Sequence record: PQ863253.1
From: Escherichia phage Ptacy1496
DNA: 64,000 nucleotides
Direction: 5' to 3' (one strand)
Position 1 is the first letter of the stretch. Every line of letters starts with the position of its first letter. The position numbers and the translations under genes are program-made. The notes under the pieces are model-generated. The model saw only the letters and a list, made by a program, of their open reading frames with translations, searched no databases and was not told the DNA's origin. Below are positions 23,398 through 32,118 of this stretch, piece by piece.

Positions 23398-24362
23398 TGT
23401 ATTCTTTAGAGGAATTTAATAATCAAGCAATAAACGCAGATTTCCAACGTAATAATATGTTCAGCTGTGTTTTTGCTACAACTCCATCAACTAAAAGCTC
23501 TTCGTTGATAAGTTCAATTAGCAACTTTTCTTATAATAACTTGGGCCTAAATTCAGATTGGTTAGGATTAACTCAAGGCGATATTAATCAGGGAATTACT
23601 ACGCTAATTACAGCTGGCACACAAAAACTGATAAGAAAATCAGGGGTTAGTAAATATCTTATTGGTGCCATGAGTCAACGTACAGTTCAAAGTTTATTAG
23701 GCTCATTTACAGTTGGTACATATTTAATTGACTTCTTTAACATGGCATATAACTCATCTGGATTGATGATATACTCTGTAAAAATGCCAGAGAATAGATT
23801 ATCCTATGAAACTGACTGGAACTATAATTCTCCTAATATTCGTATAACTGGGAGAGAATTAGACCCTTTGGTTATTTCATTCAGAATGGATTCAGAAGCT
23901 TGTAACTATCGTGCAATGCAAGACTGGGTTAACGCTGTTCAAGACCCAGTAACTGGATTGCGTGCTTTGCCGCAAGATGTCGAGGCTGATATTCAGGTTA
24001 ATCTTCATTCTCGCAATGGATTACCACATACTGCGGTGATGTTCACTGGATGCATTCCAGTGTCCGTAAGCGCTCCTGAGTTATCATATGATGGAGATAA
24101 CCAAATAACTACATTTGATGTTACTTTTGCGTATAGAGTCATGCAGGCTGGAGCAGTTGATAGACAAGCTGCGCTTGAATGGCTTGAATCTGCTGCTATA
24201 AATGGTATTCAAAGCGTTCTCGGAAATAGTGGAGGTGTCACTGGACTATCTAATTCGCTTTCACGACTTAGTAGATTAGGGGGAACTGCAGGAAGCATTT
24301 CAAATATTAACACTATGACAGGAATTGTCAATTCGCAAAGTAAAATATTAGGAGCAATATAA
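23397..24362 (+). CDS. 54: Baseplate tail tube initiator gp54
   Basis: 321 aa; followed by terminator hairpin. Confidence 0.92.
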   Translation: MYSLEEFNNQAINADFQRNNMFSCVFATTPSTKSSSLISSISNFSYNNLGLNSDWLGLTQGDINQGITTLITAGTQKLIRKSGVSKYLIGAMSQRTVQSLLGSFTVGTYLIDFFNMAYNSSGLMIYSVKMPENRLSYETDWNYNSPNIRITGRELDPLVISFRMDSEACNYRAMQDWVNAVQDPVTGLRALPQDVEADIQVNLHSRNGLPHTAVMFTGCIPVSVSAPELSYDGDNQITTFDVTFAYRVMQAGAVDRQAALEWLESAAINGIQSVLGNSGGVTGLSNSLSRLSRLGGTAGSISNINTMTGIVNSQSKILGAI

Positions 24363-24364
24363 CA

Positions 24365-24396
24365 ATGGGGACCTTTCGGTCCCCATATTTTTATTT
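24365..24396 (+). terminator. Rho-independent terminator after gene 54
   Basis: ATGGGGACC-TTTC-GGTCCCCAT followed by ATTTTTATTT. Confidence 0.8.
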
Positions 24397-24681
24397 ACGG
24401 AATGAAATGAAAGCAGCAACTGAAGCAACTAAACTGTCTTCAATATAAACTTCAATTTTTACCGGAGCTTCTGACTCAAATTTACCTGTTACTACACCCT
24501 GAAAAATACTTTCAGTCTGTTCTGGCTTTGAAAAATTTTCAGAAGGAAAAATTCCGAACTTTTTATCTGTTCCAAAAATTTTGATAAATTCATCGTAAAC
24601 TGCTTCATTAAAAGCATTATCAGCAGGAATAACGCCTTCAACTACAAGTTCTTGACCTAAAAAGCGCAAAGAAGATTTCAT
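24391..24681 (-). CDS. Hypothetical protein (T4 alt.-3 position)
   Basis: 96 aa; SD GAGGA; conserved early promoter upstream. Confidence 0.7.
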   Translation of the reverse strand: MKSSLRFLGQELVVEGVIPADNAFNEAVYDEFIKIFGTDKKFGIFPSENFSKPEQTESIFQGVVTGKFESEAPVKIEVYIEDSLVASVAAFISFRK

Positions 24682-24712
24682 TTTGTGTTCCTCATGTTAT
24701 GTCAGTAAGACT

Positions 24713-24742
24713 ACTATAACACAACACGAGGGACTTGTAAAC
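24713..24742 (-). promoter_or_regulatory. T4-type early promoter (GTTTAC -35, TGn-TATAGT -10) upstream of the alt.-3-position ORF
   Basis: Minus strand reads GTTTAC-17/18 nt-TATAGT; part of a 53-bp block duplicated at 39948-40000. Confidence 0.7.
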
Positions 24743-26799
24743 TACATCTTGAACTTTTTAGACATTCCGTTGATGTTAACCAAAGAAGCTAAGATTTGAG
24801 AAACTTCGTTTTCCTCTTCTTTTGATTCTTCTACAAGGAATTGATTAAATCCAGCCATTGGACGAACTTCACCAGTTTCCATTAGATGGTCGCCATCATA
24901 TACTGATTCTTCTAATTGTTCAGAAGGAGGAACGATTGTACCTTCGATTAGATACTTGTTATAAGCAGTTTCTTTCATAAAGTAAGTACTTACTTTATTA
25001 ATCTTCAGTAAAATTCCACGTGGTAGAATAACTTCAGCTTCTGACGGAAATCCTGATAAATGACCCGGAACGATAACTTTGATTCGCTCAGCTCCTTTAA
25101 TTACCATACCCACGCTAGTTTCAGCATCTTCATTAGCATATGTAGAATGACTACCCATATGCATCAAATCTTCTGCATCAACGGAACCTTCTCCTTCACC
25201 AGAAAATACTGCGCCGGAATCATCTAGAGCCATATAGTTTTTACCATGCTCACCGAAGATATTTGGTTTAAGCGATGTGGATACGAAGTTCTTGAAATAG
25301 AACATTTTATTTTCAATGTTATGACGCAAAGTTTTAAAGGTAACTTCTTGTCCACGGTAAAGTGTAGTTCCTGGAGGAAGAACTGAACCTTTAGCGAATG
25401 CAGAATCAAGCGTCTCAATATGTTTAATAGCTCGTTCCATATATTCTTCACGGGTAGAATCTGGTTTACCCAAAAGGAACGAGTTCATTTCAACATATGA
25501 ATCTGCACAATAATCTTCAATTACATCAGATTCAGCTTGAGTTAATCCTTTTGGAGTTACTTCAGTGCTTGCGTATTCATATGCCTGAGCAGCAGATTCA
25601 TTAATCAATTTATAAATGCCATTCATGACAAATTGAATAATAGCTGTCTTTTCATCTGGCGTAGCTTTAGAACCTTTAACCAAATCATTGATAATTTTCT
25701 TAATAACATCAAAGCTATTAGAAATATTAATATCAGCAAGATCGCTTAAAATTTTATCAGTCTTATAATCAAAGAATTCTTTATTCTTTAAATATTCTTG
25801 AGAACCTTGATATGTTATATCGCTCTGTAACTTGATAAATGGATCACGTAAACGTGCATGGGCTAATGCAATATGATTTCGGAAGCTTTCGAGTTCATAA
25901 TCACTAGATTTAAAACGAGAAGCGCTTCTCATACCGCCTATAGCTCCTTTGCTGAAGTTTGAACCAATTTGAATAACGCCAGAGTTCATTGGTCCTTCTG
26001 CTTTATACACCGGAACTTTAGATTCAAACTCTTGATATTTCTTAGCAGCGAAGCTATCACCCTGAAGTGAAGCATCAACAGTAGAATATTGAGCTTGTGC
26101 TGCTAATCGACGACTAATTTTAGTTTTCTGAATAACAGCTTGGTCCGTGCGCTTATCATTTTCTAAAGCAATAGAAGCAGCAACAGCGACAGCTTTAGGA
26201 ACAGCATTTCCTGTTTTAACGTCTACATAAACATCACCGACCTTTGATTCAACTTTTGTGAATAACTCAGTTGAAATAGGAGGTACACCTGGAATGTCTT
26301 CTAAATTGGCATTTTTACGATAAACCATAATATATGCGTACTTTTTATCATAATCCCAGATTTCCTTTAAAAGAACATATCGACCTGCTCCTTTAGTACG
26401 TACTAAACGGTCAGCAATAACTTGCATTTGACGAGCAGCGCCATTTGTTTTACTCTTTAGTACGCGGAATAAGCATGCATCAATTTTATACTGTTTCATT
26501 GTTTGAAGAGCAGTATCAAAAACAGCGTTAATGACGCCAATTGGATTTCCACCCAAGTTTCTAAGTTTAACCAGTGATAATTTCTCGTTGACACCTATCA
26601 TTACGATATGCATCATTTTATCGCCCGGCTTAACGTTTTTATTTGTATCACCTCCAGAGGTGTATGTACAAAATCTAAATCCAGGAAGCACGCTTTCTTC
26701 GCCGGCTTGAATAGCAAAAATTTGAGGTATTTTATGCTTAGGATTTAAGTTAACAACCGGCGCCGAAGCGCCGTCAAATAATTCTGTAATAAGTTCCAT
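24742..26799 (-). CDS. Alt-like ADP-ribosyltransferase paralog (intact, 685 aa)
   Basis: N-terminal ~230 aa closely related to Alt (MELITELFD...); ART signature R (TLYRGQ), STS (FVSTSL), ExE (EAEVILPRG). Confidence 0.85.
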   Translation of the reverse strand: MELITELFDGASAPVVNLNPKHKIPQIFAIQAGEESVLPGFRFCTYTSGGDTNKNVKPGDKMMHIVMIGVNEKLSLVKLRNLGGNPIGVINAVFDTALQTMKQYKIDACLFRVLKSKTNGAARQMQVIADRLVRTKGAGRYVLLKEIWDYDKKYAYIMVYRKNANLEDIPGVPPISTELFTKVESKVGDVYVDVKTGNAVPKAVAVAASIALENDKRTDQAVIQKTKISRRLAAQAQYSTVDASLQGDSFAAKKYQEFESKVPVYKAEGPMNSGVIQIGSNFSKGAIGGMRSASRFKSSDYELESFRNHIALAHARLRDPFIKLQSDITYQGSQEYLKNKEFFDYKTDKILSDLADINISNSFDVIKKIINDLVKGSKATPDEKTAIIQFVMNGIYKLINESAAQAYEYASTEVTPKGLTQAESDVIEDYCADSYVEMNSFLLGKPDSTREEYMERAIKHIETLDSAFAKGSVLPPGTTLYRGQEVTFKTLRHNIENKMFYFKNFVSTSLKPNIFGEHGKNYMALDDSGAVFSGEGEGSVDAEDLMHMGSHSTYANEDAETSVGMVIKGAERIKVIVPGHLSGFPSEAEVILPRGILLKINKVSTYFMKETAYNKYLIEGTIVPPSEQLEESVYDGDHLMETGEVRPMAGFNQFLVEESKEEENEVSQILASLVNINGMSKKFKM

Positions 26800-26802
26800 G
26801 AT

Positions 26803-28851
26803 TTATCCTTGAACGAACTTGTAAGGCATGTTTGTAATATCTATGCAAGACGCAATAATTCCAAGAGATGATTCTACTTTCTGTTTAACATTTGATGAAA
26901 CAAATGATGCAAAGTCAACTCTATCTTCTATATCACCTGTCATTGTAACTACTTCGCCGGTTTCCATTAAACGGTCACCGTCATAAATTACTGATTCGGT
27001 GAGTTCTTCGGTGGTCATAACTTCAGCTTGAATAAGCTTGTTGTTAGTTTTGACTGTTCCATCATTGTAAGATGCATCAGTTATTTTATTAACTTTGACC
27101 ATTAATCCACGTGGCAAAATGACTTCCATTTCATTTGAAGGCGCTAAACTTCCACCGGGTAAAACAACATTGACTTTATCAGCCCCAGTAATAACCCATC
27201 CAATTCCGACTAAATTATCGCTAGAATTAACAAGCCCTTCATCATTTTTATCGATAGAAATGTTTAGACGCTTTTCATCTGGTAAAACACCAACAGCTGA
27301 ATCAGTCATCCAAGTACCAAAAATGTTTGGATATAATGATGTTGATACAAAATTTCTAAAATAAAAAACTCGATTTTTTACCATTGCTTCGTATATTGAA
27401 GGTAACATTCGTTGTGAACGATACAAAGTAATACCTTTTGGTAATCGTTCACCATTTTTAAAGGCTGAATCTAAATTATCAATAGCTTTTTCTATGTCAG
27501 ATGCTGTCAAAATACTTGTACGCTCATCTGGATTATATAATCCCAAAAGAGCATTATTTATGTCTACATATCCTGAACCTACGTATTCACGAATTCCGCG
27601 TTTTTGTGCTGGTGTGTATTTAGATGAATCTTTATTTTCGACTATAGGATGTAATGACCATCCAGCTGTAAGAGCATATCCACGTAATTCTCTTCGAATA
27701 ATCTTTGTTTTTATTGCATTCCAAGAATTTTGTACTAACTCATTTGCAGCATCTTGGTTTAAATGCGAATGTTTGTTAATATTTCTTTCAAACCAAGCAC
27801 CTTTATATTTTTCTAAAGTATCATCGACGATAGAAGCAATAGTTTCTAAAGTTTTTATTGAAGTAATAGATTCTTTTCGTAATTTTTCTAAAGCTTTATT
27901 TTTTATTTCTGCATTAATAATGGATTCTTTATCTTCAGGAATTATAGAAGCTTCTCTGAATGCCATCCCAGCTGTAACATTGCTAAGAGCATTCTCTAGT
28001 GCAAATCCTGAAGTAGAAATTACCGTTAATTCATTAGAATCAGAAATTAAAGGCGCATCAGCGGGTTTATTTAATTCTGCTGCTGAAGCCTCAAATTTTT
28101 GAAACATCGGTGTTTCAAATCTAGAAGATTCCAATGACTGACTTTGTGCAATTGCTCTACGGGAAATTTTAACTTTAACGATTACAGCTTGGTCAGAACG
28201 TTTATCATTTTCTTGTGCAATAGATGCTGCAATTGCCTCATTTTTGGTTACTTGAGCTCCGGTATCTTTATTGATATAAACATCACCGACCTTCGATTCA
28301 ACTTTAGTAAAGAGCTCGGTACTAATTTCCGGAACTCCTGGAATGTCTTCTAGTGATACATTTTTGCGATGTATAAGAATATATGCATACTTTTTATCAT
28401 AATCCCAGAGTTCCTTAAGAAGGACGTATCTGCCACCTGAACGACTACGGATAAGTCTATCAGCAATAACTTGAATTTGTCGAGCTTGACCAGCGGTTTT
28501 AGACTTAAGAATACGAAGCATACAAGCATCAATTTTATACTGACGCATTGTTTGCATTGCAACAGTAAAAACTGAATTGATATAATTAATTGGGCTTGGA
28601 CCAAGACCTTTTAATTTAGCAATTGAACCTTTAGCGGTTAATGTAAAAGGAACAATATGCATCATTTTATCGCCCATTTTTAAATCGCGATTAGTATCAC
28701 CTCCAGATGTATAGGTACATAAACGAAAGCCTGGTTGTTCAATTGCATCATCAACATGAACTGAAAAAATTTGCGGTATTTTCTTCTTTGGATTTAAGTT
28801 TGTAATCGGAAGAGTAGTATCTTCGTCAAATAATTCTGTAATAAGTTCCAT
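26803..28851 (-). CDS. alt: Alt ADP-ribosyltransferase (packaged, modifies host RNA polymerase)
   Basis: 682 aa from second Met, T4 Alt length; R (TLYRSQ), STS, ExE (EMEVILPRG); late promoter on minus strand upstream. Confidence 0.92.
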   Translation of the reverse strand: MELITELFDEDTTLPITNLNPKKKIPQIFSVHVDDAIEQPGFRLCTYTSGGDTNRDLKMGDKMMHIVPFTLTAKGSIAKLKGLGPSPINYINSVFTVAMQTMRQYKIDACMLRILKSKTAGQARQIQVIADRLIRSRSGGRYVLLKELWDYDKKYAYILIHRKNVSLEDIPGVPEISTELFTKVESKVGDVYINKDTGAQVTKNEAIAASIAQENDKRSDQAVIVKVKISRRAIAQSQSLESSRFETPMFQKFEASAAELNKPADAPLISDSNELTVISTSGFALENALSNVTAGMAFREASIIPEDKESIINAEIKNKALEKLRKESITSIKTLETIASIVDDTLEKYKGAWFERNINKHSHLNQDAANELVQNSWNAIKTKIIRRELRGYALTAGWSLHPIVENKDSSKYTPAQKRGIREYVGSGYVDINNALLGLYNPDERTSILTASDIEKAIDNLDSAFKNGERLPKGITLYRSQRMLPSIYEAMVKNRVFYFRNFVSTSLYPNIFGTWMTDSAVGVLPDEKRLNISIDKNDEGLVNSSDNLVGIGWVITGADKVNVVLPGGSLAPSNEMEVILPRGLMVKVNKITDASYNDGTVKTNNKLIQAEVMTTEELTESVIYDGDRLMETGEVVTMTGDIEDRVDFASFVSSNVKQKVESSLGIIASCIDITNMPYKFVQG

Positions 28852-28874
28852 CATAGCCTCTCTAGTGTTTATTC

Positions 28875-28882
28875 TATTTATA
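28875..28882 (-). promoter_or_regulatory. Late promoter TATAAATA (minus strand) upstream of alt
   Basis: Exact consensus on minus strand about 20 nt upstream of alt start. Confidence 0.6.
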
Positions 28883-28887
28883 AAATT

Positions 28888-28905
28888 AAAGGCCCGAAGG
28901 CCTTT
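28888..28905. terminator. Hairpin between gene 30 cluster and alt
   Basis: AAAGGCC-CGAA-GGCCTTT. Confidence 0.5.
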
Positions 28906-29092
28906 AGTAATCTAGTGGTAAGAGAGTACGATATATTTCAAACTTTGGTCCTTTTTCATAGGCATCAAATGTTTCTGTAAATTTATTATAAGCGTATGCA
29001 TCTACAAATTCGAGAATGACTTGTGATACAGAAGTAGAAACATCTCCACCTTCTTTTTGAGCAATGACAATTGTTTCTAAGTAAGCTTTCAT
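28904..29092 (-). CDS. Hypothetical small protein
   Basis: 62 aa ORF between gene 30 and alt, 4-nt overlap with gene 30 stop. Confidence 0.6.
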   Translation of the reverse strand: MKAYLETIVIAQKEGGDVSTSVSQVILEFVDAYAYNKFTETFDAYEKGPKFEIYRTLLPLDY

Positions 29093-30552
29093 AAACCAGT
29101 TACCTCATGAAAATCACCAAATACATCCTCGAATGTATTAGCTTTAGTTTTATCTTCACGTAAACGAATCGCAATCGGAAGAAATAATTTAACGTAATCA
29201 GTGCGGCCGTCAGATTTTAACCAACCGTTGCATTCGCACTCTAGAATTTTTCCAATATAATAATTTTGGTTTTCCATAATGCGAGTACGGTCAAGTTCAT
29301 GCGATTTTACACCGGCTTTATCTTTTAAGCCTGAACCAGCATTTACCTTAATTTTTCCACACTCTGATTCAAGAATAAATCCACCCGCTTTAGTAGGGTC
29401 TTTACGGTGAGGATAAATTCCTACAATTTTTAAATCAACATCAATTACTTCTTTAAATTTATAGAGATTTTTTGAACGAGCATTTTCCCACAATCCATCG
29501 GTATTTTTGAGAATAATACCTTCAAGACCTTGGTCAATATACTTTTTATAAATTACCTTAGCTTCATCTAGGTTATTTACTACCTGGTTTTCAATTAAAA
29601 TTACTTTATCATAACCTGATGTCATTTGTTCTAGTTTAGAAAAACGTACATCATATTTCAAACGAAATGCAGGAAGACCGTATATTTCTACCAACGGGAC
29701 ATAATCCCAGACCTGAAACTTCATGCATTGAGCTTCTTTTTCAGAAATGGTTCCCTTTAAAGATTTATTGGCGATGCCATTAGATGCAGTACGTGATTCA
29801 GCTACTTCGGCGAATTCTTTAGCTTTACTAATTTCAGGATAAGCATCAAAAAGAAAATCTAGGCCTTCTGGCTCCTTTTCAACTTGCTCATGGTATACCA
29901 ATTCGCCATCAATTAACACACCTTCTGGATGAATCTGGCGAGCTTCTGCAGTCATTTTGATTAACTCTTCCTTAAGAAGATCTAATCCTAGATATTCATT
30001 ACCAGCTCGTGATAAAAGACGAACATCATCTAATTCATCACCTCTGACTTCAGCAAAACACCGAGCTCCATCAGCTTTTAACTGGGCAAAGGCTGGAAAT
30101 TTGATATTCTTATTAATGCCTTTTTCATCATAAGAACTTGCAAGCATTTGAGGTTGTTCAGGAATTAAACCTGGCCAAACTTTGTTTGCAATAGATACTG
30201 AAGCACCGCATTCAAGGTCTCGCATCATCACCCGACGCAAAACTTCAACATCATCTTTTTTACCGTCAGTAATATATCCAGTTAATTCCTCAATTGCCGC
30301 ATTTCCAGTCAATTTCCGAGTAGCTAACGTGAATTCAATGAAGTCAAGCATATCGGTAAGAGTCAACATTCCAAAACTCTGGGTAGCAATACCCGGTTTA
30401 GGCCATTTCTTGATATAATACTGTAACCCACGAGAATAAGTCAGACGATATACTCGTTTAAGCAATTCATTATCTTTATTCTTTTCAAGAATTGCTTGCT
30501 TCTGCTTAGTTGAACCAATAGATGCTATTTCGTTCAGAATTTTAAGAATCAT
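29089..30552 (-). CDS. 30: ATP-dependent DNA ligase gp30
   Basis: 487 aa, T4 DNA ligase length; adenylation lysine motif. Confidence 0.95.
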   Translation of the reverse strand: MILKILNEIASIGSTKQKQAILEKNKDNELLKRVYRLTYSRGLQYYIKKWPKPGIATQSFGMLTLTDMLDFIEFTLATRKLTGNAAIEELTGYITDGKKDDVEVLRRVMMRDLECGASVSIANKVWPGLIPEQPQMLASSYDEKGINKNIKFPAFAQLKADGARCFAEVRGDELDDVRLLSRAGNEYLGLDLLKEELIKMTAEARQIHPEGVLIDGELVYHEQVEKEPEGLDFLFDAYPEISKAKEFAEVAESRTASNGIANKSLKGTISEKEAQCMKFQVWDYVPLVEIYGLPAFRLKYDVRFSKLEQMTSGYDKVILIENQVVNNLDEAKVIYKKYIDQGLEGIILKNTDGLWENARSKNLYKFKEVIDVDLKIVGIYPHRKDPTKAGGFILESECGKIKVNAGSGLKDKAGVKSHELDRTRIMENQNYYIGKILECECNGWLKSDGRTDYVKLFLPIAIRLREDKTKANTFEDVFGDFHEVTGL

Positions 30553-31657: not shown

Positions 31658-32118
31658 AGAGAGTCTCTTAATAGGTTTAACACATCAATAAATTCAGCTT
31701 CGGTTAATATTGTATCATCTTTTGTTAGACCACTAGCCATGCTGTGCTTCAAAACTTTTCCTTTCGAGGCGTGTAATGCATCACGAAAGCCCTTGTTTTG
31801 GATCGCTGCTTCAAAATATGCATTTGTGTATAATTCTTTCCATGCTGGGGAGTATCTTGAAAACGGAACTCCAAGCCAGAAGAGGGTCCCACGGTCCTGA
31901 GCTCTAGCATAAGACCTTCCAGCTTGTTGGGCGGCAAGCCCGGATAACCCAAATATACGACGTTGTTGTTCAGCATTTTTCACCTTGCATCCTTGGAGGA
32001 ATCCTTCAAGACCTCCGAATTGAATACCATCCATGACGAAAGGCCATTGGGCGAAATTACTTAATGCACACGATGGCCATCTAAAATTGCTTCTAATCTC
32101 TAACTCAGACATTTTCAA
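31654..32118 (-). CDS. NADAR (YbiA/DUF1768)-like putative N-glycosidase / ADP-ribosyl hydrolase
   Basis: 154 aa; segment LSNFAQWPFVMDGIQFGGLEGFLQGCKV resembles the YbiA core FSNFAAWPIKVDGKTWPTSEHYFQAQKF. Confidence 0.6.
   Translation of the reverse strand: MKMSELEIRSNFRWPSCALSNFAQWPFVMDGIQFGGLEGFLQGCKVKNAEQQRRIFGLSGLAAQQAGRSYARAQDRGTLFWLGVPFSRYSPAWKELYTNAYFEAAIQNKGFRDALHASKGKVLKHSMASGLTKDDTILTEAEFIDVLNLLRDSL

Follow-up and report, generated by a model that had tools for sequence, protein, structure and literature searches.

Tandem full-length alt genes in a T4-related phage: alt.-1 and alt.-2 of T4 are the remnant of a second ADP-ribosyltransferase gene

The alt locus of Escherichia phage Ptacy1496 holds two full-length genes for ADP-ribosyltransferases (ARTs) of the Alt type, here called Alt and Alt2. 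In this genus the intact pair is the rule and is already known and annotated; T4 is exceptional in that most of its second gene has been deleted, and what survives of it, frameshifted, are the small reading frames alt.-1 and alt.-2. The two proteins are probably packaged and injected together as arginine-specific ARTs with different substrate ranges; the packaging and the difference in targets we infer.

Organization of the alt locus

The window (the whole 64,000-nt stretch of sequence record PQ863253.1 that was analysed) is 99.9% identical to phage vB_EcoM_G4498 and belongs to the genus Tequatrovirus. Both alt genes lie on the leftward (minus) strand, between DNA ligase (gene 30)/alt.1 and alt.-3/gene 54 and behind a late promoter: this is the position of Alt-type genes. 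The two open reading frames that a prior, sequence-only reading had described, of 685 aa (24742..26799) and 683 aa (26803..28854), are present exactly as claimed. The upstream frame, Alt, opens with ATGATG; its second ATG, which yields 682 aa (26803..28851), is the start annotated in T4 and agrees with the published numbering of the ITE-6 cleavage, and Alt residues are counted from it below. Alt2 (685 aa) starts 3 nt beyond the Alt stop, its ribosome-binding site, AAGGA, sitting within the 3' end of the upstream gene.

A match to the T4 late promoter consensus, TATAAATA (28875..28882, minus strand), lies ~20 nt upstream of the Alt start. It is the sole occurrence of that consensus on the minus strand between 24000 and 31000, is identical in T4 and is annotated as a promoter in phage Lutter; it would serve as the single late promoter (at 28882) for both Alt and Alt2. 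Just ahead of it, and after alt.1 (62 aa, Pfam Phage_blade; 28904..29092, minus strand), the upstream neighbour of Alt, is a terminator-like hairpin, TAAAGGCCTTCGGGCCTTTA followed by a T-run (28887..28906, minus strand), with an 8-bp stem that includes 4 GC pairs; G4498 and Lutter annotate the same element as a terminator. (A terminator-like hairpin inside the pair, at 26523-26539, was judged a chance match because 5 such hairpins were found where 2.7 are expected.) Immediately after the Alt2 stop is a σ70/T4 early-like promoter, TTTACA-17-TATAGT with TG (24713..24741, minus strand), where Lutter also has a promoter annotation; it probably drives the downstream neighbour of Alt2, the 96-aa alt.-3 homologue (DUF5498; 24391..24681, minus strand).

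Two proteins of one family

Alt is 98% identical to, and orthologous with, T4 Alt. Alt and Alt2 are 41% identical overall by BLASTP, and with E = 3e-161 the resemblance is far above chance, but it is spread unevenly: 68% in the N-terminal segment (residues 1-238), 11% in the central segment (239-415), 35% in the ART segment (416-619) and 42% from residue 620 to the end. Both match PF03496 (125 bits for Alt and 72 bits for Alt2, against a cut-off of 23.4), and phrog_802 covers the two proteins at full length, over residues 1-685 of Alt2 (E = 9e-256) and residues 1-681 of Alt (E = 4e-262). PF26846 is among the precomputed Pfam assignments of the homologues; an NCBIfam search gave no family, and PADLOC gave only a noise-level ThsB match (E = 0.006), with no stretch passing. 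Each protein thus has what defines the Alt type: at the C-terminus, an R-S-E-clade ART domain in which the catalytic R, S-T-S and E-x-E are all present, and full-length similarity that includes the Alt-specific N-terminal domain.

The sequence-only reading had described a closely related N-terminal portion of ~230 aa, which the 68% identity bears out (all the motifs that it quoted were found), and an R / S-T-S / E-x-E signature kept in both copies, which is invariant in sets of 9 and 19 aligned homologues. Its claim of strong divergence stands for the central region and not uniformly for the distal C-terminus, where there is an invariant block, YDGDxLMETGE. Recent gene conversion as the source of the similar N-domains was considered and rejected because synonymous sites in that domain are saturated: dS is ~1.2 between the N-domains of the pair and ~1.6 between those of copies 2 and 3 of Dhakavirus QL01.

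The catalytic motifs of Alt, all on the minus strand, are LYR at residues 476-478 (R478; 27418..27426), which aligns with VYR of CDTa, S-T-S at 503-505 (27337..27345) and EME, the E-x-E motif, at 574-576 (27124..27132). CDTa yields only weak matches, and the only ones, in a PDB sequence search with Alt; the CDTa alignment puts the Alt R and E-x-E in the correct places. The inactive T4 Alt mutant E577A, numbered from the first ATG, alters the second Glu of E-x-E. In T4, cleavage of Alt after ITE-6 and LTE-619 yields a 68.2-kDa protein (Ali et al. 2017, PMC5694885); the predicted mature form of the Alt described here, residues 7-619, has a computed mass of 68.2 kDa, the published value. The acidic C-terminal propeptide (pI 4.2) that follows the gp21 site at LTE-619 comprises residues 620-682 (26806..26994, minus strand).

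Alt2 (minus strand throughout) can be laid out in the same order. It begins with the same propeptide, MELITE, and gp21 site, ITE-6 (26782..26799). There follows an α/β domain of residues 7-238 (26086..26781; AF2 model, pLDDT 84.6), presumed to be a module for head-core association or delivery; the domain has no convincing homologue among solved structures, and weak Foldseek matches suggest that its fold may be common to other large phage proteins with unrelated effector domains. The central helical region spans residues 239-470 (25390..26085). A search with residues 236-425 against 1.84 billion representatives returned zero matches, missing even the protein's own cluster, and so is no sign that the region is unique. 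The ART catalytic domain, assigned by PF03496, alignment and Foldseek, spans residues 471-631 (24907..25389); alignment of homologues places R482 (of LYR480-482) at 25354-25356, STS507-509 at 25273-25281 and EAE587-589 at 25033-25041. The AF2 model (overall pLDDT 74) has an acidic, low-confidence insertion in this domain at about residues 516-555, and Foldseek matches it to Vis (E = 3e-7), CDTa, C3, VIP2 and the iota toxins; a PDB sequence search with Alt2 found no matches. The predicted C-terminal propeptide, residues 632-685 (24745..24906), lies behind LEE-631, is acidic (pI 4.6) and starts, like that of Alt, with SVYDGDHLMETGE. The two proteins thus have putative gp21 motifs at homologous ends, ITE-6 and LTE-619 in Alt, ITE-6 and LEE-631 in Alt2, and the predicted mature form of Alt2 consists of residues 7-631 (69.2 kDa).

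The T4 remnant

The T4 record confirms what the sequence-only reading stated, that nothing but alt.-1 and alt.-2 stands at the corresponding position in T4. Their products (NP_049810 and NP_049809) match Alt2 residues 1-55 and 62-118 with near-identity. T4 DNA aligns at 96-97% nucleotide identity to positions 24346-24761 and 26452-29143 of the window, with nothing between: the stretch absent from T4 is 1.69 kb long (24762..26451), and its T4 flanks meet at a short CT(T/C)TTTAG microhomology. Collinear, near-identical DNA on both flanks of the deletion makes alt.-1/alt.-2 and Alt2 orthologous. A second lesion in the T4 gene, the loss of 1 nt from an A-run, shifts the frame. The T4 pair is, in short, a deleted and frameshifted Alt2, and is to be annotated as an alt2 pseudogene. 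The T4 RefSeq note speaks of the remnant of a duplication "of the first part of gene alt"; from the window it is evident that the duplicated gene was a full-length paralogue. Phages Lutter and Pu-Krd-SF5 have this junction too, and its presence in all remnants examined points to the spread of one deletion allele, not to decay of the gene in general.

Distribution and constraint

An intact Alt2 is found at ≥95% protein identity in ~400 of ~520 related phage records, about three quarters. The 1.36 kb of DNA specific to Alt2 is present in 401 records (93-100% nucleotide identity); the protein is present in 396 records at ≥95% identity, below which there is a gap down to <60%, and is 99-100% identical in about 200. 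T2, RB3, RB18, RB27, RB33, RB68 and AR1 all carry the intact second gene, so that the implication of the earlier reading that the pair is unusual does not hold. Annotations of the gene are routine: it appears under "Alt-like ... (x2)", under "alt.-2" in RB68 and under "Alt2" in the BASEL phage Bas37, and alt paralogues among T4-like phages were listed by Nolan et al. (2006). In T2 (YP_010073850), RB68 (YP_009167565) and Bas37 (bas37_0032, "ADP-ribosyltransferase Alt2", not mentioned in the HIDEN-SEQ text) it is the same gene in the same place; at 96-100% protein identity to these in all compared regions, the Alt2 of the window is an ordinary member. Alt2 orthologues have dN/dS of 0.025-0.047: the gene is under strong purifying selection. 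A literature search found no functional study of it, and nothing direct on its presence in virions, its cleavage or its enzymatic activity.

Two injected ADP-ribosyltransferases?

The locus in the window would be the ancestral, intact form: a late operon of two genes for arginine-specific mono-ADP-ribosyltransferases built to one plan. Each opens with a 6-residue N-propeptide, MELITE|, followed by the ~230-aa α/β domain common to all the copies of one genome; then come a helical central region, a C3/VIP2/CDTa-like ART with R / S-T-S / E-x-E and an acidic C-propeptide behind an L-x-E site. The packaging of both products, which had been suggested from the first, is argued for by features of their sequences: the MELITE|L propeptide, the C-terminal L-x-E and the common late promoter. 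Alt and Alt2 would then enter the cell together with the injected DNA, and host proteins could therefore be ADP-ribosylated before any phage gene is expressed. What is said here of the timing of Alt2 expression and of its packaging, processing, enzymatic activity and distinct targets we infer throughout.

Would the two enzymes modify the same proteins? The divergence of the central region means different surfaces; it does not itself mean different substrates. Nevertheless, with 11% identity in the central region and 35% in the ART, Alt and Alt2 most probably have different sets of substrates in the host. T4 Alt modifies RNA polymerase α (at R265), MazF and other proteins. It is promiscuous, and alt can be dispensed with in the laboratory; Alt2 is missing from T4, which lost it at no obvious cost, and from some natural isolates; and both proteins belong to one family of E-x-E (arginine-type) ARTs. 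Alt2 could therefore be a redundant back-up, active, packaged and directed at essentially the host proteins that Alt modifies (RNA polymerase α etc.), that serves only dose or robustness. This is unlikely: such constraint over ~400 genomes (dN/dS 0.03-0.05) is not expected of a merely redundant copy, Alt2 is maintained as a distinct orthologue in another genus (copy 3 of QL01) and Alt alleles are already known to differ in function. The last point comes from Mokosh type I, a defence that T4 Alt counters, contributing to evasion: T4-type Alt restores phage growth against it, an effect that Bas37 Alt, which is of the T2 type, lacks (preprint 10.1101/2025.11.20.689424). Alt variants, then, are not interchangeable.

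Alt has been described as both a prohead core protein and an enzyme, and Alt2 might accordingly be made late and act in the producing cell, or be mainly structural in the head core, rather than be injected as an enzyme. We think this improbable: the N-propeptide, the C-terminal L-x-E site and the YDGDxLMETGE block are those of the injected Alt, and all catalytic residues are strongly constrained, needlessly so for a purely structural role. The notion of Alt2 as a pseudoenzyme or decaying duplicate on its way to the T4 state, for which the remnants in T4, Lutter and Pu-Krd-SF5 might speak, is largely ruled out by its intact frame, invariant R, STS and ExE and low dN/dS, and runs counter to its presence in so many relatives and to the one junction in all remnants examined. 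Two co-injected ARTs with different substrates remain the preferred reading.

Mosaic alt genes

The alt genes are mosaics, among alleles and among genera: a constant N-domain and C-propeptide enclose a recombining central and catalytic part. The Alt gene of the window differs from that of T2 in a variable part covering about residues 240-600, the central helical region and most of the ART (27052..28134, minus strand; T4-type vs T2/RB68-type allele): nucleotide identity is 0.95-1.00 outside it and 0.25-0.80 within. Between T4-type and T2-type Alt, dS is 0.06 in the N-domain (residues 1-238) and 0.13 in the C-propeptide (620-end), vs 1.13 in the central segment (239-415) and 1.01 in the ART (416-619), which indicates different histories for the parts. 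The T4-type variable part is found in only 174 of 520 records at ≥80% coverage, and the ART domain of T2-type Alt has 94% identity to that of a Dhakavirus copy, against just 47% for the N-domain.

One can tentatively think of the T-even alt locus as a locus of polymorphic effectors: a constant delivery frame (N-propeptide, ~230-aa N-domain and acidic C-propeptide with its invariant YDGDxLMETGE) would carry an exchangeable payload, the central region and ART, that recombines across genera. Given these histories, each phage would inject 1-3 different ARTs, and Alt2 would be the most conserved payload of the locus. If so, Alt2 has a host or defence target of its own that is essential in nature, overlooked in T4 research since T4 itself lacks alt2 through a natural deletion. 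Knowledge of injected phage ADP-ribosyltransferases comes nearly all from T4, which lost the second enzyme; the arrangement in the window is intact, as it is in most relatives, T2 among them. The conservation of Alt2 and the allele-dependent counter-defence against Mokosh type I pose a question: what is the target of the second ART, and does it neutralise a defence as the DNA enters?

Comparison with known systems

The closest known system is T4 Alt (gpAlt, NP_049811), the head-packaged, injected NAD+:arginine ADP-ribosyltransferase: the Alt gene of the window has the same position and the same late promoter. Alt2 resembles T4 Alt in length, domain order, propeptides, catalytic motifs and operon; it differs in sequence (41% identity overall, the central region effectively unalignable at 11%) and in the acidic insertion of its own ART.

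Duplications of alt are also seen in 44RR, RB49, JS98, Bp7 and Acinetobacter phages, and in Dhakavirus and others, as in the window, tandem Alt paralogues lie between DNA ligase/alt.1 and alt.-3/gp54. Dhakavirus QL01/JS10 has a triple alt array, the window two copies, the upstream one a T4-type allele. Copy 1 of QL01 matches T2-type Alt, and copy 3 is the orthologue of Alt2, with 45% identity to it in the central region and 59% in the ART, against 11% (over the aligned part) and 35% between Alt2 and Alt.

The ADP-ribosylating R-S-E toxins (C3, VIP2, iota, CDTa and Vis; PF03496) share with the Alt proteins the ART fold and an active site of R / S-T-S / E-x-E. They are secreted, whereas Alt proteins are delivered by injection from the phage capsid and have ~470 extra N-terminal residues, together with propeptides removed by a protease. 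In this last respect Alt proteins are like IPI, IPII and IPIII, the internal proteins of T4 that have a capsid-targeting sequence: gp21 removes from these a short N-terminal propeptide after L/I-x-E, and they are likewise carried in the head and ejected as cargo. Alt proteins differ from them in their far greater size, in being trimmed at the C-terminus as well and in number, with ~40 copies instead of ~360.

The alt locus

The window phage is a Tequatrovirus; over the 4.9 kb around its alt pair it shares 99.9% identity with several phages, Escherichia phage vB_EcoM_G4498 among them. The minus-strand order is DNA ligase (gene 30), alt.1, an ORF of 682/683 aa (26803..28851/28854; here Alt), an ORF of 685 aa (24742..26799; Alt2) and alt.-3, beyond which baseplate genes 54, 48 and 29 lie on the plus strand, convergent with the alt genes. 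Both long ORFs are present precisely as the sequence-only reading gave them, and its claim of two intact Alt-type ADP-ribosyltransferases (ARTs) is borne out: the Pfam ADP-ribosyltransferase exoenzyme domain (PF03496) scores 125 and 72 bits in the two, above the gathering cut-off of 23.4 bits; the PHROG family "Alt-like RNA polymerase ADP-ribosyltransferase" matches each at full length; and the catalytic motifs are retained in both. The two proteins are 41% identical (pairwise BLASTP, E = 3e-161). The upstream ORF, 98% identical to T4 Alt, begins with ATGATG, as in T4; the second ATG is the annotated start, consistent with ribosome-binding-site spacing and with the published numbering of the ITE-6 cleavage.

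(A note on neighboring genes: alt.1, window 28904-29092 on the minus strand, matches the Pfam "Phage blade protein" PF24647, E = 2e-29; an out-of-frame minus-strand ORF inside the gene 30.3 homologue, 31749-31976, is T4's annotated 30.3'.)

Intact catalytic motifs of Alt2

The reading frame of Alt2 is intact and retains the LYR arginine (R482), S-T-S (507-509) and E-x-E (E587, E589); alignments with 9 and with 19 homologues show no variation at these positions. These catalytic assignments follow from an HMMER alignment placing VYR and EYE of CDTa opposite LYR and EME of Alt, and from the published, catalytically dead T4 Alt mutant E577A (PMC11404850), E577 being, when numbered from the first ATG, the second glutamate of E-x-E. 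In the AlphaFold2 model of Alt2 (pLDDT 74, pTM 0.67) an alpha/beta N-domain is followed by a long helical stretch and then by a C-terminal domain for which Foldseek returns CDTa, C3, VIP2, iota toxin and the Vis toxin (the last at E = 3e-7). Pairwise dN/dS among the Alt2 orthologues of the window, T2 and RB68 is 0.025-0.047. With frame and motifs intact, an ART fold in the model and dN/dS this low, the notion of a dead or decaying Alt2 is all but excluded.

A separate Foldseek search of viral predicted structures with the N-domain model (window 26080-26799, minus strand) gives weak matches (E 1e-7 to 1e-4, TM about 0.5) to uncharacterized proteins of 500-1280 aa in Dickeya, Erwinia, Vibrio and Agrobacterium phages, some of them bearing a Zeta-toxin or a deaminase domain; Alt and these proteins might have a capsid-delivery module in common.

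A probable late operon for two probably packaged enzymes

The only match to the T4 late-promoter consensus, TATAAATA, on the minus strand of the alt region lies at 28882-28875, directly following the alt.1 terminator hairpin. This single promoter, the 3-nt gap between the Alt stop and the Alt2 start, and the location of the Alt2 ribosome-binding site within the 3' end of the upstream gene give Alt and Alt2 the look of a single late operon. (An early-type promoter, TTTACA-17-TATAGT with TG, is found just past the Alt2 stop and before alt.-3, at 24713-24741 on the minus strand; a strong bidirectional terminator hairpin at 24365-24386 separates alt.-3 from gene 54.)

[quoted passage not shown] 2017; PMC5694885); the mature upstream protein, computed at 68.2 kDa, agrees. 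Alt2 has an N-terminus, MELITE|L, identical to that of Alt, and its LEE-631 is an L-x-E motif in the position homologous to LTE-619; its predicted mature mass is 69.2 kDa. The tails to be removed are acidic (pI 4.2-4.6), and in both proteins they start with SV(I)YDGDxLMETGE, a block invariant in 9/9 paralogues compared. Shared propeptide and L-x-E sites, the tail block and the late operon layout concur in indicating that Alt2, too, is probably packaged in the head, and the proposal of two packaged ARTs is, by inference, well supported.

Why should a segment that is discarded be invariant? The C-terminal propeptides (window 24745-24906 and 26806-26994), which the prohead protease gp21 would remove, hold the family's most conserved motif, YDGDxLMETGE, unchanged in 9 paralogues from two genera and with a second L-x-E within it. 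That a tail is thrown away and yet does not vary suggests that it helps to target the core, or that it holds the enzyme inactive until maturation.

Divergence and mosaicism

Identity between Alt and Alt2 is 68% in the N-domain (1-238), 11% in the central region (239-415), 35% in the ART domain (416-619) and 42% in the C-terminal tail (620-end); the alignment shows the pair differing most in the parts expected to determine specificity. Alt2 is the orthologue of copy 3 of the three tandem alt paralogues of Dhakavirus QL01 (central 45%, ART 59%, tail 67%), and the Alt/Alt2-type split therefore predates that between Tequatrovirus and Dhakavirus. Different targets for the two enzymes, as the sequence-only reading had suggested, are plausible. 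The HIDEN-SEQ preprint (10.1101/2025.11.20.689424) reports that T4 Alt aids evasion of Mokosh type I and that the T2-type Alt of Bas37 (bas37_0033) is no substitute for it: independent experimental support that sequence differences among Alt proteins matter. Its main text makes no mention of Alt2 (bas37_0032).

The upstream gene of the window is of T4 type. Its nucleotide identity to T2 alt, of T2 type, is 25-80% between about aa 240 and about aa 600 (window 27052-28134) and 95-100% on either side; dS values of 0.06 for the N-domain (aa 1-238) and 0.13 for the tail (aa 620-end) stand against 1.13 for the central region and 1.01 for the ART domain. The T4-type middle occurs in only 174/520 records, about a third. 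The gene is evidently a recombinant mosaic, its middle (central region and most of ART) a different allele from T2's. Between T2-type Alt and QL01 copy 1, identity is 94% for the ART domains (dS 0.58) and only 47% for the N-domains; by these comparisons N-domains group by genome and middles by type. Recent gene conversion as the cause is rejected, dS between paralogous N-domains being saturated (1.2-1.6). The mosaic fits a resident frame on which central-plus-ART segments are exchanged, an N-domain that co-evolves with the head core of its phage, or both.

T4 as the exception

T4 alt.-1 and alt.-2 are near-identical to Alt2 residues 1-55 and 62-118, and the PHROG families made from them match Alt2 better than Alt; Alt2 is the full-length version of the gene annotated in T4 as alt.-1 and alt.-2. 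Window 24346-24761 and 26452-29143 have counterparts in T4 DNA at 96-97% identity, and what lies between has none; T4 therefore lacks 1.69 kb (24762-26451). That T4 retains only remnants, as the sequence-only reading had it, is correct. The junction bears a short CT(T/C)TTTAG microhomology; the split between alt.-1 and alt.-2 stems from a single-base deletion in an A-run; and "QVPRVVL" at the alt.-2 C-terminus is read-through past the junction into the intergenic promoter region. The T4 RefSeq note already traces alt.-1/alt.-2 to an ancient duplication of alt's first part; the window shows their ancestor to have been a complete paralogue.

Isolates Lutter and Pu-Krd-SF5 share T4's junction, combined in Lutter with a T2-type upstream gene, which points to one deletion allele spread by recombination. 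(The Lutter remnant, locus L007, 3598-3983, adjoining T2-type alt, is further interrupted by a stop at codon 6; in Pu-Krd-SF5, L008, 1501-3937, the upstream alt is split into two ORFs, either genuinely or by sequencing error.)

The implication that the intact pair is unusual finds no support in its distribution. The part of Alt2 unlike Alt (1359 nt, coverage at least 80%) is found at 93-100% identity in 401 phage records, T2, RB3, RB18, RB27, RB33, RB68, AR1 and many Shigella and Yersinia phages included, of the about 520-533 that match the alt locus at all. By tblastn, Alt2 is encoded at protein identity of at least 95% in 396 records, the next-best class falling below 60%, and its 90% cluster in a large protein collection has 772 members. 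(Because of these close relatives, the zero phmmer matches of Alt2 aa 236-425, window 25525-26094 on the minus strand, in 1.84 billion cluster representatives of another collection, where its own cluster was also missed, are untrustworthy.)

Nor is the pair novel: in this genus two copies are standard and already annotated. RefSeq has "Alt-like RNA polymerase ADP-ribosyltransferase (x2)"; Alt2 is labeled "alt.-2" in RB68 and "ADP-ribosyltransferase Alt2" in BASEL phage Bas37. The literature searched yielded no paper characterizing, or otherwise studying, Alt2, which would, if injected as its packaging features imply, be the group's most conserved injected ART. In phage 04086 (L005, 2484-9035) three ORFs, unequal in length, are annotated as alt-type. 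Among T4-like phages, alt paralogues were described by Nolan et al. 2006 (PMC1524935), with that of 44RR a full-length duplicate, and duplications in Ac42, JS98 and Bp7 by Jin et al. 2014 (PMC4177764); QL01 has its three tandem copies at full length (L006, 1864-8124). With Alt2 so widespread, and already annotated in relatives, the intact pair is the normal condition and T4 the exception; what interest the pair retains comes from T4, the model phage, being by nature an alt2 mutant.
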